A stretch of DNA of 64,000 nt from Chitinophagales bacterium (GTDB lineage Bacteria; Bacteroidota; Bacteroidia; Chitinophagales; JADIYW01), in assembly GCA_023957235.1 (NCBI GenBank), contig JAMLHI010000004.1, positions 75,422-139,421 of the forward strand, written 5' to 3'. Of this stretch, positions 1,307 through 63,353 are shown one piece after another; the stretch's first letter is position 1, and each line of letters starts with the position of its first letter. The notes below the pieces were generated by a model. The model was given only the letters and a program-made list of their open reading frames with translations. It was not told where the DNA came from and searched no databases. Made by a program: the position numbers and the translations under genes.

Positions 1307-2545
1307 ATGGTTAAGAAGAGTTTGCAATTTTGTTCGTTTTGCGGTAAGTCTAAGAATGAAGTCATGATATTGATTTCAGGGATGGATGCACATATTTGTG
1401 AAAATTGTGTCAATCAAGCTCAACAGATTATTCAGGAAGAACTTCAACATCATCATAAGAAAGGTGGATTTGTCTTAAATTCCAATTTAAAGCCTAAAAG
1501 CATTAAAGAATTTTTAGATGATTATATTATTGGTCAAGATGAAGCCAAGAAAGTAATCGCTGTTGCAGTATATAATCACTATAAAAGACTCAACCTGCCT
1601 GCCAAAGAAGATGATATTGAAATTGAAAAATCTAATATTATACTAGTAGGAAGAACTGGCACTGGAAAAACATTGATTGCCAAAACGATAGCAAAATTAT
1701 TAAATGTACCTTTTGCTATTGTTGATGCGACTGTATTTACTGAGGCAGGATATGTTGGCGAAGATGTAGAAAGTATTTTGACAAGATTGCTTCAAGTATG
1801 CGATTATAATGTCGATGTTGCCCAGAAAGGAATCGTTTATATTGATGAGATTGATAAAATTGCTCGCAAAAGTGACAATCCTTCTATCACACGTGATGTT
1901 TCAGGTGAGGGTGTACAACAGTCATTGTTGAAAATGTTGGAAGGAACCGAAGTCTTGGTTCCGCCTCAAGGTGGACGTAAGCACCCTGACCAAAAGCTGG
2001 TTAAAGTAGAGACAAAAAATATTTTATTCATCTGCGGTGGAGCATTCGATGGAATTGAAAGAAAAATTGGCAATAGAATTCAGCGTCAGGAGATAGGTTT
2101 TAAAAAGATTGATTCCAATGATGAAAAGATTGATAAAGAAAATTTATTAAAATATATCAATCATTCAGACTTAAAAGCTTTTGGTTTGATACCAGAATTA
2201 CTTGGTCGATTGCCCATATTGTCATATTTGGAACCATTAGATAAAAATGCGTTGAAAGATATTTTGACAAAGCCGAAAAATGCATTAGTTAAACAATTTT
2301 CTAAGCTTTTTGAAATGGAGAATATTCAATTGAAAATTGAGGATGATGCATTGGATTTCATTGTGGATCAAGCCATGGAGAATAAGTTGGGTGCAAGAGG
2401 TTTGAGATCTATTATGGAGGCAATTATGAATGATGCGATGTTTGAATTGCCTTCTCAAGAGGAAGTCAAAAAATTTGTAGTGAGTAGATCTTACGCTGAA
2501 GAAAAAATAAAAAAGACGAATACAAGTAAACAAAAAGTTGCTTAA
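1307..2545 (+). CDS. clpX: ATP-dependent Clp protease ATP-binding subunit ClpX
   Basis: N-terminal C4 zinc finger (CSFCGK...CENC), Walker [10 protein letters not shown] and Walker B VYIDEIDK. Length is 412 aa, directly downstream of clpP. Confidence 0.97.
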
Positions 2546-2587
2546 TGTGTTCTAAATATTGAATTATATCACTTAAATAAAATAATC

Positions 2588-3184
2588 ATGGCATTTGAAT
2601 TACCAAAATTACCTTATGCGTATGATGCTTTAGAGCCTCATATTGATGGAAGAACAATGGAAATCCATTATAGTAAACACCATCAAGCATATACTACCAA
2701 CTTGAATGCAGCTATTCAAGGTACTGCACTAGAAGGAAAATCAATTGAAGAAGTATTAGTTGAAGGAAAAGATATTCCTGCTGTTAGAAATAACGGTGGC
2801 GGGTTCTATAATCACAATTTATTTTGGACGGTAATGAGTCCAAATGGTGGTGGACTTCCAAAAGGTGAATTAGCTACTGCAATTGATAGTTCATTTGGTT
2901 CATTTGATGCATTTAAAGAACAGTTTGCTAAAGCTGCAGCTACTAGGTTTGGTTCTGGTTGGGCGTGGTTGAGCGCACATAATGGAAAATTAGAAATTTG
3001 CTCTACCCCTAATCAAGATAACCCAATTATGGATGGAAAATGTGGTGAGCCAATTTTAGCTCTTGATGTATGGGAGCATGCCTATTATCTACACTACCAA
3101 AATAGAAGACCTGACTATATTAGTGCTTTTTGGAATGTAGTAAATTGGGATGAGGTTGCAAGAAGATTTGCTGCTGCCAAATAA
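2588..3184 (+). CDS. Fe/Mn-family superoxide dismutase
   Basis: Signature [18 protein letters not shown] and an N-terminal [13 protein letters not shown]...HYSKHH. Length is 198 aa. Confidence 0.95.
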
Positions 3185-42059: not shown

Positions 42060-42223
42060 GGAGGATTTATCTTAAAAGATTTATAATTGGATGCCTTTCC
42101 TATTTATTGTCATCAAGAAAAATTTAAATGACTGTTTTGTTCAATTTTGATATAATAGGTTTAATATTTAGAATTTCCTTTACTTAGAATCTGCAAATTG
42201 TCTTCCTATATGAACATATAATA

Positions 42224-42256
42224 AAAAACCCTTATCGAAAGGATAAGGGTTTTTTT
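42224..42256. terminator. Bidirectional intrinsic terminator after rplI
   Basis: aaaaacccttatc gaaa ggataagggttttttt: a GC-containing stem flanked by an A-tract and a T-tract. It separates the ribosomal operon from the downstream paralog operon. Confidence 0.8.
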
Positions 42257-42276
42257 ATTGATGTGATTTTGTTGAA

Positions 42277-42723
42277 TTATTCAGCTATAACTTCAAATTC
42301 AAAATCAGCATTAATTTCTTTAAAGATATGTAGCGTAGCTTTATAAGTGCCTAAATCTTTAATTTCATTAGGAATAATAATTTTTTTACGTTCAACATCG
42401 ATTCCCAATTCACTTTTAATAGCATCAGCTAATTGTACATTAGTCACACTACCAAACAATTTGCCAGTAGTACCTGCTTTTGCACCGATAGAGAATTTTG
42501 TTCCTGCTATTTTTTCAGCAAGAGCCTTGTAATCTTCTAATTGTTTAGCGATTTTGTTGACTTGTTGACGCTTGATTTCTTCTAAATGCTTTTTATTTGA
42601 AGCATTAGCAATTTTAGCCAAACCTTTTGGAATTAAAAAGTTGCGACCATATCCAGGTTTTACCTTCACAAGGTCATATTTTAGACCTAAATTTTCAACA
42701 TCTTGCAATAATATGATTTCCAT
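42277..42723 (-). CDS. rplI: 50S ribosomal protein L9
   Basis: MEIILLQDVENLGLKYDLVKVKPGYGRNFLIP is the canonical L9 N-terminus. It is the last gene of rpsF-rpsR-rplI. Confidence 0.97.
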   Translation of the reverse strand: MEIILLQDVENLGLKYDLVKVKPGYGRNFLIPKGLAKIANASNKKHLEEIKRQQVNKIAKQLEDYKALAEKIAGTKFSIGAKAGTTGKLFGSVTNVQLADAIKSELGIDVERKKIIIPNEIKDLGTYKATLHIFKEINADFEFEVIAE

Positions 42724-52358: not shown

Positions 52359-55358
52359 CTAATTAATCTTTGTAATTGTAATCTCCACTCTTTGATTGAG
52401 TTTTCTTCCTTGTTCTGTATTGTTATCAGAAATGTTTTGTGATTTGCCATAGCCTTTATAAGTCAATCTTTCGGGAGAGACTCCTCTTGTAATCAGATAA
52501 TCCATGACAGATTTTGCTCTTTTTGTAGAGAGTTCATTGCAGAAATTATCATCACAAAGCCCATTGGTATGACCACCAATTTCGATATTAAGTTCTTTGT
52601 TTTTGATTAGATAGACTGCCAGTTGGTTGAGATCGTCATAAGATTTTGACTGAATAAAGGAGGCATTGACAACAAAATATACATTTTTTAGAGATATTTT
52701 TTGGCCAATTTCTTTTTTTAGTACAGATAATTCATCTGCTATTGTATTGCTGTATATTGTTGTGCCTGATTGTTCTTTTATTTTTTGCAAACTATCCAAT
52801 TCTTGTTTTAGGGAATTAATATCTTTGTATTGTTGTTTTTTGAGTGTTTCTAGTTTTTTTCTTTCATTCTCTAGGTTTTCTTTTTCAAGAGCTAATTGTT
52901 CCTTTTCTATCTGCATTTGAGAGATTGCAATAGCTATTTTTTCTTTTTCACTTAATAGTTTCTGTTGTTCTCTTTGCAAACTATCATTATTGTTTTTAGT
53001 CTCTTGGTTGATTGAAGATATTTGGTTCTTTTGCTGCTCTAAAATTTTTAAACTATCTTCTAATTTTATAATTTCTTGATTCCAATCCTTTTTTTGTTCT
53101 TCAGTATTGTTAGCATAATGATTCAGCTTGGAAGTTGAAGGTAAAGTAGAAATCGAATCAGTAGATGCTTGCTTTTCAGCCACAGTTTCTAATGTATTGT
53201 TAGAGGTGTTAATATTTTGAGCTTCTTGGAGTTCTCTAAGTTTTTGCTCATAACTATTCAACTCTTTTTGTTGTTTTATATTATCAATTTGAGTGGGCTT
53301 GTAAACAATTAATGAGCTATCAGACTGCTTGGCAAGAGTTGTTTCAGGTGTTTTTGATTCATTAATTCTGATGGGTTCTTGAAGAGTCGGTGCTGGAAGA
53401 TTTTGGGCTGCCATAAGTTGTTGAAGCTTTTCTTCATAGGGAGTTAGTTTTTTATTATTTTCTTTTGCCTTAATAGGCTTTGTTTCTGACTTTTCTGGAG
53501 TTGAATTTGTCAAATTTATATTTTGGAGACTGTCAAGTTTTTGCTTGTATTCATTAGTAGTATTGCCATTACTATTAGAAGTATAAACAGTAGATGGAAC
53601 AGCAGGGATATTTAATTTAGCCCTTTCCAGTTGTCTTTTGAGATCATTGATTTTTTCATCATAAGAAGGATCGTAATTAACTGAAGGTGGAGTATATGCT
53701 GGGAAATTATTATTTGGATGGATAGGCAATGTGGTATATTGCTCCTCTAGTTTTTTTAAGTCTTCATTAATTTGTGTTTCCTTTTTGTCGATAGCTTGTT
53801 CTTCATTGGATTTCTCAATAGGGCTACCCGAATTGGGACCTTGATTTAATTGTCTTCTGAGTTCTTCAATTCTTTTATCTATATCAGAGGTTTCATTATT
53901 TTGATAAGGTTTGAGTTTGGGAATCTCAGGAATACTACTTGCAAATAATCCTTGATCTATTTTGACAGCATCAGGTCTCAATTCTCTAGGCAATGAGATT
54001 TTATATATATCACTTAAACCATAGCCACCACCTCTTTCACTAGAATAATAAGCATATTCTCCTGAAGCAGGAATGGTGTAATAAATATCCATCCCTATAG
54101 TATTGATATTCTGCCCTAGATTGACAGGTGTACTCCAGTTCTTCCAAGTATTGTCGAGTCTTCTACTCATAAACATATCAAAATCACCATATCCGGCATG
54201 TCCATTGGAAGAAAAATAGAGTGTTTTGCCGTCAGCTGCAATAAATACACTGGCTTCTGCTGCTGCTGTATTCAAGTCTGCTCCCATATTCATTGGTTCT
54301 GACCAGTTACCATCTGCATATTTAAAACTGACGTACAAATCCATATCTCCATAAGTGTCATCTCTTTCTATGGCCATCACTAATACTTTCTCGTCTAAAC
54401 TGACATGATAGCATGCAAACCGGCTTTTGTTGTACATATTGAAAATAGTCAATGGTTTAGGCTTGCTCCATGTACCATTGTTCTGTTTTTTACTGACTGC
54501 TACACCTTGTGATTCTGTTCTATAATCATATTTATTGGCGAGATACATTGTATTTCCATCTGGACTAATAGCACAAACAAAATTGTGTTCATCAGTATTT
54601 AAAGGAGAACCTACATTGCTTGCATTAGACCAAGAACCATTATATTGTCTTTGGGAAACATATATGTCGTCTTTTTTTTCGATACCTAAATTTTCAGGAG
54701 CATTTTTTCTTGCAAAATAGAGTGTAGCACCATCAGGTGATATGATTGGCAACATATCATTATAAGGTGAATTGACGCCTGAGCCTAGATTTTCAGGAAA
54801 TGGATTGATAGAATTATAAGCGATAGTATTGATTTTGGGTTCTATTTTGATTTTGTCTGGTGATATGCCGATACAGTCAATTTGAGGCTGGTTTCTAAAA
54901 TTGGCATAATTTAGTTCCAGTTTGAGACGGATGACTTTATAAGGAGTAAGAGGTATAAAATGGCTAAAAATTCTAGCGACTTGTGGATCTAAAGGACGAG
55001 GATTGGCTTGGTGATAAACGAGATATTCTTTACCACTGACATCATAGAGATAAATCTTTTCGATGGCACCAGATAATAGATTTTCTCCGATTGCGATTTG
55101 TTGAACTTGAGAAGGTCTTTCAAACTCTACTGTGATAGATGCAGTTTGTGTACCGCTTGCTGGAGCCCATGCTACAAGGCTTTTGCCATAATTTGGAAGT
55201 GCATTGGGAATACCTAATACTTGTTGAGCACTGAATTCTTTGGTGCCATATTGTGAACTAAATTTGACAACATTCTTAGCCCAATATACTTGTTGGGCTT
55301 TTGCGTAATTGCTCAATAATGATATAAGAAGTAAAAAGAGTAAATTTTTCATTTTCAA
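52359..55358 (-). CDS. OmpA-family protein with TolB-like (PD40) beta-propeller repeats and a long repetitive coiled-coil spacer
   Basis: Signal peptide, then repeated PD40-like segments (ISPDGATLYFA, ISPDGNTMYLA, IAADGKTLYFSS). The spacer is Q/N/E/K-rich. The C-terminal OmpA domain contains NELSTKRAKSVMDYL...GRKLNQRVEI. Confidence 0.85.
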   Translation of the reverse strand: MKMKNLLFLLLISLLSNYAKAQQVYWAKNVVKFSSQYGTKEFSAQQVLGIPNALPNYGKSLVAWAPASGTQTASITVEFERPSQVQQIAIGENLLSGAIEKIYLYDVSGKEYLVYHQANPRPLDPQVARIFSHFIPLTPYKVIRLKLELNYANFRNQPQIDCIGISPDKIKIEPKINTIAYNSINPFPENLGSGVNSPYNDMLPIISPDGATLYFARKNAPENLGIEKKDDIYVSQRQYNGSWSNASNVGSPLNTDEHNFVCAISPDGNTMYLANKYDYRTESQGVAVSKKQNNGTWSKPKPLTIFNMYNKSRFACYHVSLDEKVLVMAIERDDTYGDMDLYVSFKYADGNWSEPMNMGADLNTAAAEASVFIAADGKTLYFSSNGHAGYGDFDMFMSRRLDNTWKNWSTPVNLGQNINTIGMDIYYTIPASGEYAYYSSERGGGYGLSDIYKISLPRELRPDAVKIDQGLFASSIPEIPKLKPYQNNETSDIDKRIEELRRQLNQGPNSGSPIEKSNEEQAIDKKETQINEDLKKLEEQYTTLPIHPNNNFPAYTPPSVNYDPSYDEKINDLKRQLERAKLNIPAVPSTVYTSNSNGNTTNEYKQKLDSLQNINLTNSTPEKSETKPIKAKENNKKLTPYEEKLQQLMAAQNLPAPTLQEPIRINESKTPETTLAKQSDSSLIVYKPTQIDNIKQQKELNSYEQKLRELQEAQNINTSNNTLETVAEKQASTDSISTLPSTSKLNHYANNTEEQKKDWNQEIIKLEDSLKILEQQKNQISSINQETKNNNDSLQREQQKLLSEKEKIAIAISQMQIEKEQLALEKENLENERKKLETLKKQQYKDINSLKQELDSLQKIKEQSGTTIYSNTIADELSVLKKEIGQKISLKNVYFVVNASFIQSKSYDDLNQLAVYLIKNKELNIEIGGHTNGLCDDNFCNELSTKRAKSVMDYLITRGVSPERLTYKGYGKSQNISDNNTEQGRKLNQRVEITITKIN

Positions 55359-59942: not shown

Positions 59943-61097
59943 TTAGTACAAAGGTAGCTGTGGTTCAATTTCTTTGATATAACCTAATATTCCACCTTTT
60001 AAGTTGAGTAAATTGTCATAGCCTAAATCTTGAAGAGCTTCAATTGCTCTAGTGCTTCTCGCACCACTTTTACAGTGGATAATGACAGGAATATCTTTAC
60101 GAATTTGATCCAAACTGTTTGTAATGGTTCCTAAAGGAATTAATTGTGCTCCTATATTCACCAATTCATACTCATGAGGTTCTCGAACATCTATCACTTG
60201 AATATCTCTGGCTTCATCTTTCCATTGCTTAAATTGAAGAACGTTGATTTCTTTGACTTCTTTTTTGTTGATTGAATCATGTTTTAAACCACAGAAAAAC
60301 TCATAATCTATCAATGATGTTTGAGTAGGCTTGTCTCCTGTGAGTGGATTTTGAGGGTCTTTGAAAATCTTAAATATTCTTGTTGTGAATCCTAAAGCAT
60401 CGAAAGTAAAAAGTCTTCCATTCAAAACTTCGCCAATTCCTGTTACAATTTTGATGACTTCGTTGGCTTGAAGACAGCCCATGATTCCAGGTAATACACC
60501 CAAAACACCACCTTCTGCACAACTTGGTACTAAGCCTGGAGGAGGAGGTTCGGGATACAAGTCTCTGTAATTAACACCTCCTTCGTAATTGAATACTGAT
60601 ACTTGACCATCAAATCTGTAAATAGATGCATAGACATTAGGTATGCCAGTCATTACGCAAGCATCATTGACTAAATATCGGGTAGGAAAATTGTCGGTTC
60701 CGTCTGCAACTACATCGTATTCTTTAAATATTTTCAACGCGTTTTCACTTGTCAGCCTCTCATTATAGGTGACAACTTGAATATGAGGGTTAAGAGATTG
60801 AATGCGTTCTTTAGCTGCTTCTACTTTTAATTTTCCAATATCATTGACAGAAAACAATACCTGTCTTTGTAAATTACTATCATCTACAGTGTCAAAATCT
60901 ATTAATCCTATAGTACCTACACCTGCTGCAGCTAAATATAATAGGGCAGGGCTACCGAGGCCTCCAGAGCCAATAATTAATACTTTTGCAGCCTTTAATC
61001 TTTTTTGCCCTTCTAATCCGACTTCTGGAATGATGATATGTCTAGAATATCTAGCCAGTTCTTCTTTACTGAGTTGAATTTCTTCTACGTTTCTCAT
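59943..61097 (-). CDS. moeZ: MoeB/ThiF-type E1-like adenylyltransferase fused to a C-terminal rhodanese domain (MoeZ-type)
   Basis: YSRHIIIPEVG...IIGSGGLGSPALLYLAAAGVG nucleotide motif, the conserved CAEGGVLG loop, and a rhodanese active-site loop HCKSGARS. I take the start at ATG 61097 (MRNVEE), 10 nt after the cysO stop; the listed GTG at 61127 would overlap cysO by 20 nt. Confidence 0.9.
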   Translation of the reverse strand: MRNVEEIQLSKEELARYSRHIIIPEVGLEGQKRLKAAKVLIIGSGGLGSPALLYLAAAGVGTIGLIDFDTVDDSNLQRQVLFSVNDIGKLKVEAAKERIQSLNPHIQVVTYNERLTSENALKIFKEYDVVADGTDNFPTRYLVNDACVMTGIPNVYASIYRFDGQVSVFNYEGGVNYRDLYPEPPPPGLVPSCAEGGVLGVLPGIMGCLQANEVIKIVTGIGEVLNGRLFTFDALGFTTRIFKIFKDPQNPLTGDKPTQTSLIDYEFFCGLKHDSINKKEVKEINVLQFKQWKDEARDIQVIDVREPHEYELVNIGAQLIPLGTITNSLDQIRKDIPVIIHCKSGARSTRAIEALQDLGYDNLLNLKGGILGYIKEIEPQLPLY

Positions 61098-61107
61098 ATA
61101 TTTTGGC

Positions 61108-61392
61108 TTAAAAGTTAGAGGAGCCACCAGCTATTGCTGGAACAATACTCACAATAGTATCAGGTTGCAATGGAGTGTTATCACCATCTATTCCACGGAT
61201 ATCGTCTTCTCCGACAAATATTTTAACAAAGCTTCTTATTTTTCCATTAGCATCTAATATCTGAGGGCTAATATTAGAATATTTCTGAGTCAAATCTTTT
61301 ATAGCTTGTCCGACAGTAGTAGCTTCAGTATTAAAAGTAGCTTGATCTTCAGTGTACTTTCTTAATGGTGTAGGAATAATTAAAGTGGCCAT
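61108..61392 (-). CDS. cysO: ThiS/MoaD-family ubiquitin-like sulfur carrier (CysO-like) with GG-SSNF C-terminus
   Basis: 94 aa counted from the internal ATG (MATLIIPTPLRKY...). Beta-grasp-like length and pattern. It ends ...VPAIAGGSSNF, with Gly-Gly codons at 61123-61128 and four more codons before the stop. It sits between the JAMM and E1-like genes. Confidence 0.8.
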   Translation of the reverse strand: MATLIIPTPLRKYTEDQATFNTEATTVGQAIKDLTQKYSNISPQILDANGKIRSFVKIFVGEDDIRGIDGDNTPLQPDTIVSIVPAIAGGSSNF

Positions 61393-61426: not shown

Positions 61427-61840
61427 TTAAAATTCTTGTTCAAAAATATTTTTTTCCTCATTCAATCTCCAAGAACTTAAAATATCAGATTGTCCATCTA
61501 TTACTGATACTATAATATATGAAAAAAATGGCAATGCTTGTTTGAGGTCATGTTCAGATGGGATAGCAGGATGCTGAGGGTGGGAGTGATATACTCCTAT
61601 TAAAGTTGTTTGGTGAGTCAATGCATATTGTTCTGCTTTGATATAATCAATTGGCGATATTTCAAACCTTCTTCTTTGATCACCTTCTTTACTGTTGGCA
61701 ATTGGTCTAGCAAGTTCAATAGTTCTTTTTCCATTCTGTTCAAAGCCATATAAAAAACCTACACATTCATTTGGAAACTCTTTTTCAGCATGAGTCCTAA
61801 TGATTATTTCTGCTTTTTGATTGAAGATAGTATGATACAT
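61427..61840 (-). CDS. mec: JAMM/MPN+ (Mov34) metalloprotease (Mec-like)
   Basis: Complete JAMM motif: upstream Glu (NECVGFLYG) and HSHPQHPAIPSEHD (HxHx7Sx2D). Length is 137 aa. Confidence 0.9.
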   Translation of the reverse strand: MYHTIFNQKAEIIIRTHAEKEFPNECVGFLYGFEQNGKRTIELARPIANSKEGDQRRRFEISPIDYIKAEQYALTHQTTLIGVYHSHPQHPAIPSEHDLKQALPFFSYIIVSVIDGQSDILSSWRLNEEKNIFEQEF

Positions 61841-61841
61841 T

Positions 61842-62777
61842 TTACAAAATTTGGTCTAAAATATCTGGATAATTAGAGGCATGGTCTGGAAAAATAGTTA
61901 CAATGACGCCAGATGATATAGATTGAGCAACTTTTAAAGTTCCGACTAAATTGGCGGCAGAAGAAGGGCTGAGTAAAAGCCCCAGTCTTTGGGCGGCAAG
62001 TTTTATCATATCAAACGCTTCTATTGTATCAATGAATAAATTTTGGTCAGCTATATTCTCATCATATATTTTAGGTACTAATGCACTTTCTAGGTGCTTC
62101 CATCCTTCCAATCCGTGCATTGCACTATCTGGCTGCAGTGATGTCAATGAAATAAATGGATTCAGTTCTTTCAATCTTCTAGAAGTCCCTGTAAAAGTGC
62201 CAGTTGTTCCTAATCCTGCCACAAAGTGAGTGACTTGAGATTGAGTTTGTTCCCAAATTTCGATAGCAGTCGTGTGATAATGGGCTTTCCAGTTATCCTC
62301 ATTGGCATATTGATCGGTATAATAATATAAATCAGGATGTAATTGAGACAATTCTTTAGCTTTTATCTGAGCCTCGTCTGTAGTGCCAAATTTAGAAGTG
62401 AAAATAATATTTGCACCTAAGGCTTTTAATGCAGTTTTTTTCTGACAGGACGCATTTTCTGGTACACATAATGTGACTGGAAGACCAATGTTTGCTCCAA
62501 TAGTAGCATAAGCAACCGCAGTGTTTCCACTTGAAGCGTCAATGATTCCTTTGTTTTCATTGATAAGCCCTTTTTCTATTGCTGACATAATTATCCTATA
62601 TGCTGCACGTGCTTTGACGGAATTAGATAATTGATTCCATTCTAATTTTGCATATATTTTTATATTCGGATTGCTCTGTATCTTGCTGATGTCAAATAGA
62701 GGAGTCTGACCAATATGTGAAGCTAAACATTGAGCTTTTTGAATAATTGATGTTGTATGTATAATTGTTTCCGTCAT
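61842..62777 (-). CDS. cysM: PLP-dependent cysteine synthase (CysM-like, O-phosphoserine/thiocarboxylate-type by context)
   Basis: PLP-Lys context NSVKARAA, the SSGNTAVAYA loop and GTTGTFTG phosphate-binding loop. It is the first gene of the operon. Confidence 0.88.
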   Translation of the reverse strand: MTETIIHTTSIIQKAQCLASHIGQTPLFDISKIQSNPNIKIYAKLEWNQLSNSVKARAAYRIIMSAIEKGLINENKGIIDASSGNTAVAYATIGANIGLPVTLCVPENASCQKKTALKALGANIIFTSKFGTTDEAQIKAKELSQLHPDLYYYTDQYANEDNWKAHYHTTAIEIWEQTQSQVTHFVAGLGTTGTFTGTSRRLKELNPFISLTSLQPDSAMHGLEGWKHLESALVPKIYDENIADQNLFIDTIEAFDMIKLAAQRLGLLLSPSSAANLVGTLKVAQSISSGVIVTIFPDHASNYPDILDQIL

Positions 62778-62782
62778 TAGTT

Positions 62783-62822
62783 AATATAAAAAATAAATAA
62801 GCCTCACTTTTCAGGTGAGGCT
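62783..62822 (-). terminator. Attenuator terminator between the Cys-leader ORF and cysM
   Basis: Minus strand reads AGCCTCAC CTGAAAA GTGAGGCT followed by TATTTATTTTTTATATT. It ends 6 nt before the cysM ATG. Confidence 0.8.
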
Positions 62823-62862
62823 CATATTTGCTTTATTAAAATATTTTTCCTTTATATAAATT

Positions 62863-62870
62863 CCTCACCT
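62863..62870 (-). promoter_or_regulatory. Antiterminator arm AGGTGAGG (contains the leader-peptide stop codon)
   Basis: It is perfectly complementary to CCTCACCT (62813-62820, minus strand), which includes 6 nt of the 5' arm of the terminator plus the first 2 loop nt. The leader's TGA stop occupies 62865-62867, inside this arm. Confidence 0.7.
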
Positions 62871-62939
62871 ATCTGTTATTGTGCAACAACAGCAACAGCA
62901 TACCGCTAGATTTCTAAATAATTGGAGTTTATTTTTCAT
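62865..62939 (-). CDS. Cysteine-codon-rich leader peptide MKNKLQLFRNLAVCCCCCCTITDR
   Basis: Hand translation of the minus strand gives ATG AAA AAT AAA CTC CAA TTA TTT AGA AAT CTA GCG GTA TGC TGT TGC TGT TGT TGC ACA ATA ACA GAT AGG TGA. The six consecutive Cys codons lie at 62883-62900. The ORF is not in the supplied track because it is too short. Confidence 0.8.
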   Translation of the reverse strand: MKNKLQLFRNLAVCCCCCCTITDR

Positions 62940-62946
62940 GTTTATA

Positions 62947-62954
62947 CAAATATA
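62947..62954 (-). promoter_or_regulatory. Candidate -7 promoter box TATATTTG for the Cys-leader transcript
   Basis: Exact TAnnTTTG match 7 nt upstream of the leader ATG, which would give a nearly leaderless mRNA. This is tentative. Confidence 0.35.
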
Positions 62955-62990
62955 CATTCATGTTTTGGAATAAAGTTGCAAATAATGTTA

Positions 62991-63059: not shown

Positions 63060-63353
63060 CTACATCTGTGCTTTTAATTCCTTGTCAAAAATAAATGCAC
63101 CAAATGGAAGTAAGGATAGAATAAAGCCTTTGATTGAAAATTGGTATGTCCATTTATATTTTGAATGGCATAATAATATCCATATAATAAAGGCTATAGT
63201 CAATCCTCCATGTATTCTTCCTAGCCAATAAACAAAATCAGGATAGCCTGCAAGATACTTCAATGGCATGCCAATTCCTAAAAGTAATAAATATGAAATT
63301 CCTTCTAAAATGGCTATCAAGCTGAATTGTTTTAACAGAGTATAGTCTTTCAT
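63060..63353 (-). CDS. DUF3817-like small integral membrane protein
   Basis: Length 97 aa with three TM helices. ILEGISYLLLLGIGMPLKY...RIHGGL resembles the DUF3817 family. Confidence 0.65.
   Translation of the reverse strand: MKDYTLLKQFSLIAILEGISYLLLLGIGMPLKYLAGYPDFVYWLGRIHGGLTIAFIIWILLCHSKYKWTYQFSIKGFILSLLPFGAFIFDKELKAQM

Follow-up and report, generated by a model that had tools for sequence, protein, structure and literature searches.

The leader of the cysM-mec-cysO-moeZ operon in a 64-kb stretch of DNA from a Chitinophagales bacterium (the whole stretch is called the window below) is read here, with a probability of roughly 85%, as a ribosome-mediated transcription attenuator by which the operon would respond to the level of charged tRNA-Cys. 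It consists of a mini open reading frame (mini-ORF) with six consecutive Cys codons, an intrinsic terminator in front of cysM, and an anti-terminator whose pairing excludes that of the terminator. The elements themselves were observed, as were their conservation, the covariation of both helices, a conserved spacing on the scale of the ribosome and the thermodynamic plausibility of the two alternative folds. From these observations we infer the translation of the mini-ORF, its promoter and start site, the actual termination of transcription and the response to cysteine. Comparative analysis further indicated that the element belongs to a family of Cys-specific, terminator-based leader-peptide attenuators, which is widespread in Bacteroidota and apparently undescribed.

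Anatomy of the leader and the proposed switch

All elements of the leader lie on the minus strand, which was read directly. The mini-ORF (62865..62939), which also appears in the ORF list, contains 24 codons and a TGA stop and encodes MKNKLQLFRNLAVCCCCCCTITDR. Its ATG is located at 62939-62937, 162 nt upstream of the ATG of cysM, and its TGA at 62867-62865. The six Cys codons proposed to be regulatory (TGC TGT TGC TGT TGT TGC) occupy 62883..62900. The leader's stop codon falls within AGGTGAGG (62870-62863), an 8-mer exactly complementary to CCTCACCT (62820-62813). An earlier sequence-only reading of this DNA had described the 24-codon ORF, its six Cys codons, the embedded stop and the complementarity of the 8-mers, all of which matched the direct reading of the strand. 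The motif (TGY)x6 occurs only once in the window and was found in 0 of 100 dinucleotide-preserving shuffles. The sole other four-codon Cys run of the window, four TGC codons at 54258 (+), was rejected as a chance occurrence, being an out-of-frame CTG repeat within a 999-aa minus-strand gene. Three-codon Cys runs are also present at 3169 and 6132 (+), and runs of three are common in the background.

Folding placed the intrinsic terminator at 62788..62825, with an 11-bp stem, a 7-nt loop and a U-rich tract. In the stem, AUGAGCCUCAC/GUGAGGCUUAU (62825-62797), residues 62825-62815 pair with 62807-62797, at a free energy of -15.5 kcal/mol. The U-rich tract stops at 62788, 10 nt ahead of the cysM ATG (62777). 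The terminator recognized in the sequence-only reading was thus real, but its stem is longer than had been described and its T-run ends 10 nt, not 6 nt, before the start codon of cysM. The 5' strand of the anti-terminator (62854..62871) was identified by folds, by the z score of its duplex and by covariation; it comprises the core UAGGUGAGG (62871-62863), with the leader's stop codon inside, and a weak extension, UUUAUAU, at 62860-62854. The 3' strand (62812..62827, AUAUGAGCCUCACCUG) was defined by the pairing table and the duplex tests, and corresponds to the 5' arm of the terminator plus three nucleotides of its loop. The anti-terminator of the window is therefore a helix with a 9-bp core, UAGGUGAGG/CCUCACCUG, and a weak extension of 7 bp.

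A predicted sigma-A -7 promoter box, TATATTTG, is located at 62947..62954, 7 nt before the ATG of the mini-ORF, and fits the Bacteroidota consensus TAnnTTTG perfectly. It was found by a search for this consensus, which replaced a generic sigma-70 promoter scan that was dropped as inapplicable to Bacteroidota. In Flavobacterium psychrophilum the -7 box spans -12 to -5 (PMC9723704). Transferred to the box in the window, this position predicts a transcription start near A62942, a 5' untranslated region (UTR) of 3 nt and hence a nearly leaderless mini-ORF. An alternative in-frame ATG at 62957, which would give an ORF of 30 codons, adjoins or overlaps the predicted box on its upstream side.

With these elements, the switch would operate as follows. 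Transcription would begin a few nucleotides before the AUG of the mini-ORF, and a ribosome would translate the leader as RNA polymerase makes the next ~100 nt. When Cys-tRNA is plentiful, the ribosome would pass the six Cys codons to the stop and cover UAGGUGAGG (62871-62863). With this segment covered, the terminator hairpin (62825-62797 and the U tract) would form and transcription would end before cysM. When Cys-tRNA is scarce, the ribosome would stall on the Cys run, with its 3' edge 3-18 nt short of the anti-terminator; the freed anti-terminator would then pair with the 5' arm of the terminator once this is transcribed, no terminator would form, and the polymerase would enter the operon.

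The energetics of the window were in line with such a switch. Counted from the first base of the codon in its A site, the ribosome reaches ~12 nt in the 3' direction. Assuming this reach, a ribosome on any of the six Cys codons leaves a clearance of 3-18 nt before the anti-terminator, and a ribosome at the stop codon buries the anti-terminator segment. The RNA left free 3' of a Cys-stalled ribosome, up to the loop of the terminator, folded into the anti-terminator at -14.4 kcal/mol, with the entire 5' arm of the terminator sequestered. With the ribosome at the stop codon, folding showed that the terminator alone can form (-16.0 kcal/mol). The comparison of folds suggested in the sequence-only reading thus gave the expected switch under differing ribosome positions. 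When the fold was extended through the U tract, the anti-terminated state (-17.8 kcal/mol) and the terminated state (-16.9 kcal/mol) were nearly isoenergetic, and the order of synthesis and the position of the ribosome would therefore decide the outcome.

Conservation and covariation in Bacteroidota

The comparison set consisted of 80 genomic loci, which were fetched via an alignment of 30 CysM homologs and cover Chitinophagales, Saprospiraceae, Cytophagales (Flammeovirgaceae, Reichenbachiella, Fulvivirga and others), some Flavobacteriales and Balneolaceae. By its homologs, the CysM of the window groups with uncultured Chitinophagales. At least three consecutive Cys codons in a short ORF, at most 450 nt upstream of cysM, were present in 67 of the 80 loci. 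The 450 nt preceding cysM contained 1.47 runs of at least five Cys codons per kb, compared with 0.005 per kb elsewhere in the loci on both strands, an enrichment of ~275-fold. This enrichment and the result of the shuffles bore out the earlier claim that the Cys run is very unlikely to be due to chance. The 13 loci without a nearby run were checked singly: three reached the end of a contig, six had leaders further upstream, which mostly precede an additional first gene, three had interrupted Cys clusters, all recovered by the covariance model described below, and one had none. Of the 77 loci whose upstream sequence was long enough to be informative, 76 had a Cys-rich mini-ORF ahead of the operon, the exception being L024.

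The Cys run varied from 3 to 8 codons, most often 5, and the mini-ORFs had a median length of 24 codons. Outside the run, the leader peptides were conserved neither in sequence nor in length, and the spacer was A/T-rich and variable; only the in-frame TGY run, the anti-terminator and the terminator were strongly conserved. The same pattern was seen in the closest relative of the window, L081, whose CysM is 87% identical and which has the same synteny (DUF3817-leader-cysM-mec-cysO-moeZ). The promoter block, the ATG, the anti-terminator with the embedded stop and both arms of the terminator were identical between the two, while the peptide (MKAKFQSFRNILAACCCCCMNTNG, with five Cys) and the spacer differed. 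In the window, the DUF3817 membrane-protein gene of this shared order (63060-63353) lies directly upstream of the leader on the same strand.

The promoter block identical in L081 is a stretch of 26 nt around the predicted -7 box, TTCCAAAACATGAATGTATATTTGTA (listed at window positions 62955-62980, minus strand), with diverged flanks. It takes in the alternative ATG at 62957, and conservation of the promoter at the nucleotide level is therefore the likelier reason for the retention of this ATG. In the closest clade (L001, L002, L003 and L010) the box is 4-5 nt from the ATG, which implies a 5' UTR of 0-1 nt, and these transcripts would be leaderless. Of 62 first units, 12 had an exact box 2-12 nt ahead of an in-frame ATG, compared with 0.6% of random ATGs. 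In loci with two leader units in series, the exact box, where found, preceded the first unit, and none was close to the ATG of the second.

Two finders were used for the terminators, a strict one (no mismatches, loop of at most 9 nt) and a fold-based one that tolerates bulges. With the strict finder, the stems had 10-14 bp and energies of -14 to -24 kcal/mol, and in most units they were located 18-47 nt past the stop of the mini-ORF. Most of the ~16 units scored by it as having no terminator were found by inspection and by the fold-based finder to have bulged ones, and with the latter finder a terminator followed the mini-ORF in 78 of 82 units. The 5' arms of the terminators vary by lineage (CCTCACC, CCTTTCC, GCTCCAC, CCCTTCCTG and others), which made a real test of the anti-terminator possible. 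The complementary segment was found to track the arm (GGTGAGG, GGAAAGG, GGTGGAG and CAGGAAGGGC), giving covarying pairs such as GGTGAGG/CCTCACC, GGAAAGG/CCTTTCC and GGTGGAG/CTCCACC.

The pairing was then quantified by a duplex test, in which the 5' arm of each terminator was matched for pairing with the sequence between the Cys run and that arm, using 200 dinucleotide shuffles per unit. The best duplex had z < -2 in 45 of 66 units, with a median z of -2.8 and a z of -4.3 for the window. When arms were swapped, own arms against dissimilar arms from other loci, the own arm had a median rank of 0.047 and fell in the best decile in 64% of cases; the mean difference of -4.25 kcal/mol favored the own arm (Wilcoxon p = 3e-12).

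Covariation was measured in two alignments. The first, A2, was a plain MAFFT alignment of 31 units chosen from the set with z < -2. In its anti-terminator 79.9% of cells were paired (72.3% in shuffled controls) with 29 double changes (15 in the controls), and in its terminator 91.4% were paired (81.9%) with 38 double changes (12.8). For either helix 0 of 500 shuffles reached the observed values, and slid registers gave 39-66% and 33-71% pairing, respectively. Because the rows of A2 had been preselected for a good anti-terminator, a covariance model carrying the structure of the terminator only was built, and the window and all 81 loci were searched with it. Of the 91 matches, which formed the second alignment, A4, 84 were leaders on the strand of the operon, many of them from loci outside the training set. 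The anti-terminator of A4 was paired in 73.3% of cells (67.9% in shuffled controls), with 64 double changes (37.5), a result again reached by 0 of 500 shuffles, and slid registers gave 37-62%. The same model matched both strands of the window at 42208-42310 (34 and 31 bits), but these matches were rejected as terminator-only, without a Cys run or complementarity to an anti-terminator. This site resembles a bidirectional intrinsic terminator.

In the set with z < -2, the anti-terminator started at a median of 12 nt past the last Cys codon (interquartile range 9-14, range 6-20), and the loop to the arm of the terminator had a median of 40 nt. The anti-terminator was wholly inside the ORF in 29 units, overlapped the stop in 13 (the window included) and lay past the stop in 3, and its offset from the reading frame was spread over all three phases (19/17/9). 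Since the spacing from the run is tight, the position of the stop variable and the frame not locked, these data point to a constraint that acts on the RNA, is measured from the Cys run and is set by the size of the ribosome. The geometry proposed earlier, which was keyed to the stop codon, did not hold for the family: it is keyed to the Cys run, and the stop is inside the anti-terminator in about one third of cases. A conserved Cys mini-ORF with alternative hairpins upstream of orthologous operons, the absence of which had been named beforehand as an argument against attenuation, was present across Bacteroidota.

In Balneolaceae (L066, L068 and L069), the ORF is longer and richer in GC and carries seven or eight Cys codons at its very C-terminal end. 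No terminator was found by either finder in L066 and L069, and none was apparent in the fold of L068. By analogy with Actinobacteria, these loci may use a different mechanism, translational or Rho-dependent.

Weighing of the attenuator against other explanations

Several points weigh against the attenuation reading. The start codon of the leader (62939 or 62957) and the promoter are predictions, and translation in Bacteroidota proceeds without Shine-Dalgarno-led initiation. In 21 of 66 units the anti-terminator was not significantly better than shuffles, and the core of the anti-terminator in the window is short (8-9 bp) for a helix that closes a loop of ~40 nt. The preselection of A2 for a good anti-terminator is addressed by the unselected A4, but the anti-terminator columns of A4 are imperfectly registered. 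A conserved trp-like 1:2 helix was not found, as segments upstream of the anti-terminator paired with it no better than shuffles (family mean z of -0.3), and no conserved pause hairpin was found across the family. With both missing, a leader that is not translated might allow read-through as the default state in many members of the family. In the window, 62926-62915 pairs with the anti-terminator strand in the fold of the untranslated leader and the terminator forms, but the predicted 1:2 helix (62926-62915 : 62871-62862) was dropped from the mechanism of the family since it is not conserved. Such a helix is a feature of the trpL type and is not required for the class of attenuators. The earlier proposal of ribosome-mediated attenuation was supported by conservation, covariation and folds, with no trp-like 1:2 helix conserved in the family.

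The leader resembles trpL, hisL, pheL, leuL, thrL and ilvL of Enterobacteria and the ilvB leaders of Actinobacteria in having an ORF rich in codons for the end product between promoter and operon. As in these classical attenuators, an intrinsic terminator and a mutually exclusive anti-terminator would be selected by the location of the ribosome. It differs from them in cysteine as the regulatory amino acid, in a Bacteroidota host without Shine-Dalgarno initiation, in the predicted nearly leaderless start, in the absence of a conserved 1:2 (pause/anti-anti-terminator) helix, in frequent tandem duplication, and in showing no similarity in sequence or in Rfam. A scan of Rfam 15 (4227 models, permissive E-values), which the sequence-only reading had recommended for leader families, gave nothing at the gathering threshold, the best leader match being Phe_leader (RF01859), whose threshold is 55 bits, at 20.1 bits. 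The literature search, in which subscription journals were incompletely covered, turned up no account of a Cys leader in Bacteroidota, and flavobacterial leader-peptide attenuation is mentioned in generic terms only (PMC9723704). The rarity that had been claimed for Cys leaders needs qualification, since poly-Cys leader ORFs are established by experiment in mycobacteria as translational attenuators (bioRxiv 10.1101/834739) and a Cys-codon upstream ORF with a terminator has been predicted before cysS in Rhodobacterales (PMC8632094).

The mycobacterial polycysteine leaderless small ORFs (Ms5788A, the "Cys ribulon") were shown experimentally to be cysteine-responsive and to act at the translational level (Canestrari et al. 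2020, bioRxiv 10.1101/834739). In Ms5788A the Cys tract is complementary to, and pairs with, the Shine-Dalgarno region of the gene that follows, and termination of transcription was excluded; to the knowledge of those authors in 2020, attenuation for cysteine mediated by an upstream ORF had not been described (bioRxiv 10.1101/834739). As far as can be judged from sequence, the leaders share with these the unannotated mini-ORFs of consecutive Cys codons as the first cistron at or near the 5' end of cysteine-related transcripts. Stalling on the Cys tract as the sensor, as proposed here, and the presence of leaders on several operons would also be common to both. They differ in the intrinsic terminator and covarying anti-terminator found here, in a Cys tract that is not paired with the start region of cysM, and in the phylum and the regulated operon; there is no homology between them.

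This comparison raises the rival that survives best, namely translational attenuation as in mycobacteria, in which stalling would expose the start region of cysM and the hairpin would mainly occlude initiation. The only poly-Cys leader ORFs characterized by experiment work in this way (bioRxiv 10.1101/834739). In the window, moreover, the hairpin and U tract end just 10 nt before the AUG of cysM, and in L005, L033, L036 and L040 the T tract reaches or overlaps the start codon; initiation in Bacteroidota needs an unstructured start region, so a dual effect would be possible. However, the hairpins look like intrinsic terminators in every respect, with a GC-rich stem of 10-14 bp followed by a T tract, and their distance to cysM ranges from -3 to >300 nt, with the first unit of tandem loci ~200 nt away. 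In some loci another gene stands between the leader and cysM, and in no fold did the Cys tract pair with the start region of cysM, its pairing being local only, unlike that of Ms5788A. Translational attenuation is accordingly considered improbable as the main mode of action.

Further predicted leaders differ from the present one in other ways. The candidate Cys leader peptides of Actinobacteria were predicted by comparison, without terminators, and Rho-dependence was merely suggested for them (Seliverstov et al. 2005, PMC1262725). They too are short ORFs with Cys runs, near the stop codon and upstream of cys or cbs operons, but the Bacteroidota element has the full terminator/anti-terminator apparatus. 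The motif uORFC-8-2, located before cysS in Rhodobacterales, combines tandem Cys codons with an intrinsic terminator and was likewise predicted to be a ribosome-mediated attenuator (Brewer et al. 2021, PMC8632094). Compared by its description, this alphaproteobacterial element has only two Cys codons, which fall within its first stem around positions 14-15, and its target is the cysteinyl-tRNA synthetase gene cysS and not a gene of cysteine biosynthesis, whereas the leader of the window has six Cys codons with cysM downstream; the two are unrelated in sequence.

Two further explanations are both very unlikely. In the first, the mini-ORF would encode a functional Cys-rich micropeptide, metal- or redox-active or a RiPP precursor, which is merely co-located with the operon, and the hairpin would be an ordinary terminator or stabilizer. 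Poly-Cys peptides could bind metals, and a 1-Cys peroxiredoxin is co-transcribed in some loci. Against such a function, the peptides vary in both sequence and length beyond the Cys run and differ in sequence between tandem copies, the downstream segment keeps its complementarity to the arm in all three frames and on both sides of the stop, and a terminator between the gene and its operon would make no sense for a co-expressed peptide. In the second, of about the same low probability, a trans-acting protein, small RNA or metabolite would bind the leader RNA, and the Cys codons would be incidental or secondary. In favor of such a factor, translation of the leader is itself a prediction, and cysteine and methionine genes of Firmicutes are controlled by riboswitches or T-boxes, according to references cited in PMC1262725. 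No Rfam family was matched, however, the variable A/T-rich spacer leaves no candidate for a ligand-binding domain, and the spacing between Cys run and anti-terminator fits the footprint of the ribosome. A chance co-occurrence of Cys run and terminator, for which nothing but the AT-rich, low-complexity region speaks, has a negligible probability and is refuted by the shuffles, the enrichment, the phylum-wide conservation and the covariation of both helices.

The CysO-type operon and a possible wider cysteine regulon

The four genes named in the sequence-only reading as lying downstream of the leader were all recovered by domain searches, as a PALP-family cysteine synthase, a JAB/Mec protein, a ThiS-like CysO and a MoeZ with ThiF and rhodanese domains, all on the minus strand. 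The first structural gene (61842..62777) encodes a cysM-like PLP-dependent cysteine synthase (PF00291 at 8.6e-62). Its best NCBIfam match was cysM, under the equivalog cut-off, and its PDB matches included CysM of E. coli/Salmonella and of M. tuberculosis. It is followed by a mec-like JAB/JAMM metalloprotease (61427..61840, PF14464 at 9e-23) and a cysO-like sulfur carrier of the ThiS/MoaD fold (61108..61392, PF02597), the top PDB match of which was M. tuberculosis CysO in the CysM-CysO complex (3dwg_C, E = 3e-13). The start of cysO is likely the internal ATG at 61392, giving 94 aa, because the first 23 codons of the ORF overlap mec and the ortholog in L081 was called as 94 aa. The C-terminus of the carrier (...AIAGGSSNF) extends four residues past the Gly-Gly motif, and the thiocarboxylate could form only once this extension is cleaved off, presumably by Mec, the JAMM protease encoded next to it. 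The last gene (59943..61097) encodes a moeZ-like adenylyltransferase/sulfurtransferase with ThiF and rhodanese domains (PF00899 and PF00581), which matched the NCBIfam MoeZ/MoeB models at 1e-147 to 1e-149, under the equivalog cut-offs. Its start is likely the ATG at 61097, giving 384 aa, the same length as the ortholog in L081.

A PLP cysteine synthase, a ThiS-fold carrier, a JAMM protease and a ThiF/rhodanese enzyme encoded together make up the gene content of the CysO type, and because the best solved relative of the ThiS-fold protein is M. tuberculosis CysO, the label of a CysO-type operon is justified at the level of gene content. The order cysM-mec-cysO-moeZ was conserved in 69 of the 80 loci; in the others, the sequence seems to stop short of the full operon. 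The CysO-dependent pathway of M. tuberculosis (mec-cysO-cysM plus MoeZ) uses these four types of protein as well. Compared with M. tuberculosis, the gene order differs here, moeZ is in the operon, CysO extends past Gly-Gly, and CysM scores under the NCBIfam cut-off for cysM.

A series of two complete attenuator units was found in L012, L021, L023, L038, L041, L049, L050, L053, L054 and L079 (within the 460 nt upstream of cysM), and also in L013. Each unit of these pairs had a poly-Cys mini-ORF and its own terminator, and usually its own anti-terminator. To our knowledge, tandem leader-peptide attenuators are unusual; a sharper response would be expected of them, as of riboswitches and T-boxes in tandem.

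Leaders were also found in front of other genes. In L034 and L045, a second poly-Cys mini-ORF with a GC-rich terminator is located downstream of moeZ (L034:7238-7372 (+), MIQYTQNMMCCCCCQPRQPDSYWCR; L045:7233-7372 (+), MNQYTQTMMMCCCCPPRQPDRYWCM), ~120 nt upstream of a gene for an O-acetylhomoserine/O-acetylserine sulfhydrylase (checked in L034: TIGR01326, 692 bits), and the covariance model matched the second copy of L045. This second leader suggests a Cys attenuation regulon of several operons. In L029, L034 and L045, the Cys leader is ~1.1 kb upstream of cysM, ahead of an inserted 1-Cys peroxiredoxin gene (L029:3037-3702, L034:3096-3764, L045:3044-3712; checked in L034: PF00578 and PF10417), which links the leader to an antioxidant enzyme. 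A truncated peroxiredoxin remnant of 119 aa is present at L013:3584-3943. In L070, a gene resembling sirohaem synthase (1946-2563 (+); PF13241, PF14824) is located between a tiny "CCC*" frame and cysM, and synthesis of the sirohaem-type cofactor of sulfite reduction may be co-regulated there.

These leaders raise the possibility of a phylum-wide, undescribed cysteine "ribulon" of Bacteroidota, in which leaderless or near-leaderless poly-Cys terminator/anti-terminator switches, often two in series, would govern the CysO-type operon, to which some lineages would add the O-acetylhomoserine/O-acetylserine sulfhydrylase and the 1-Cys peroxiredoxin. We give this wider proposal an even chance of being correct. 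If it is, the ribulon would be the first terminator-based switch for a cysteine biosynthetic pathway, and the charging of Cys-tRNA would also read out thiol and redox status.

The mechanism of the attenuator is a textbook one and conceptually unsurprising. It would extend terminator-based leader-peptide attenuation to cysteine, for which the prior experimental evidence was only translational and came from mycobacteria. Gene regulation in Bacteroidota, with their distinct promoters and initiation and few known cis-regulatory RNAs, is poorly charted, and the leader gives a concrete and testable regulator for the CysO-type sulfur-carrier pathway of cysteine synthesis. An Rfam-type family made from the alignments would aid annotation and the prediction of cysteine regulons in uncultured Bacteroidota. 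With its predicted nearly leaderless start, its independence of Shine-Dalgarno sequences and its tandem units, the family would offer a natural system for the coupling of transcription and translation outside Proteobacteria.

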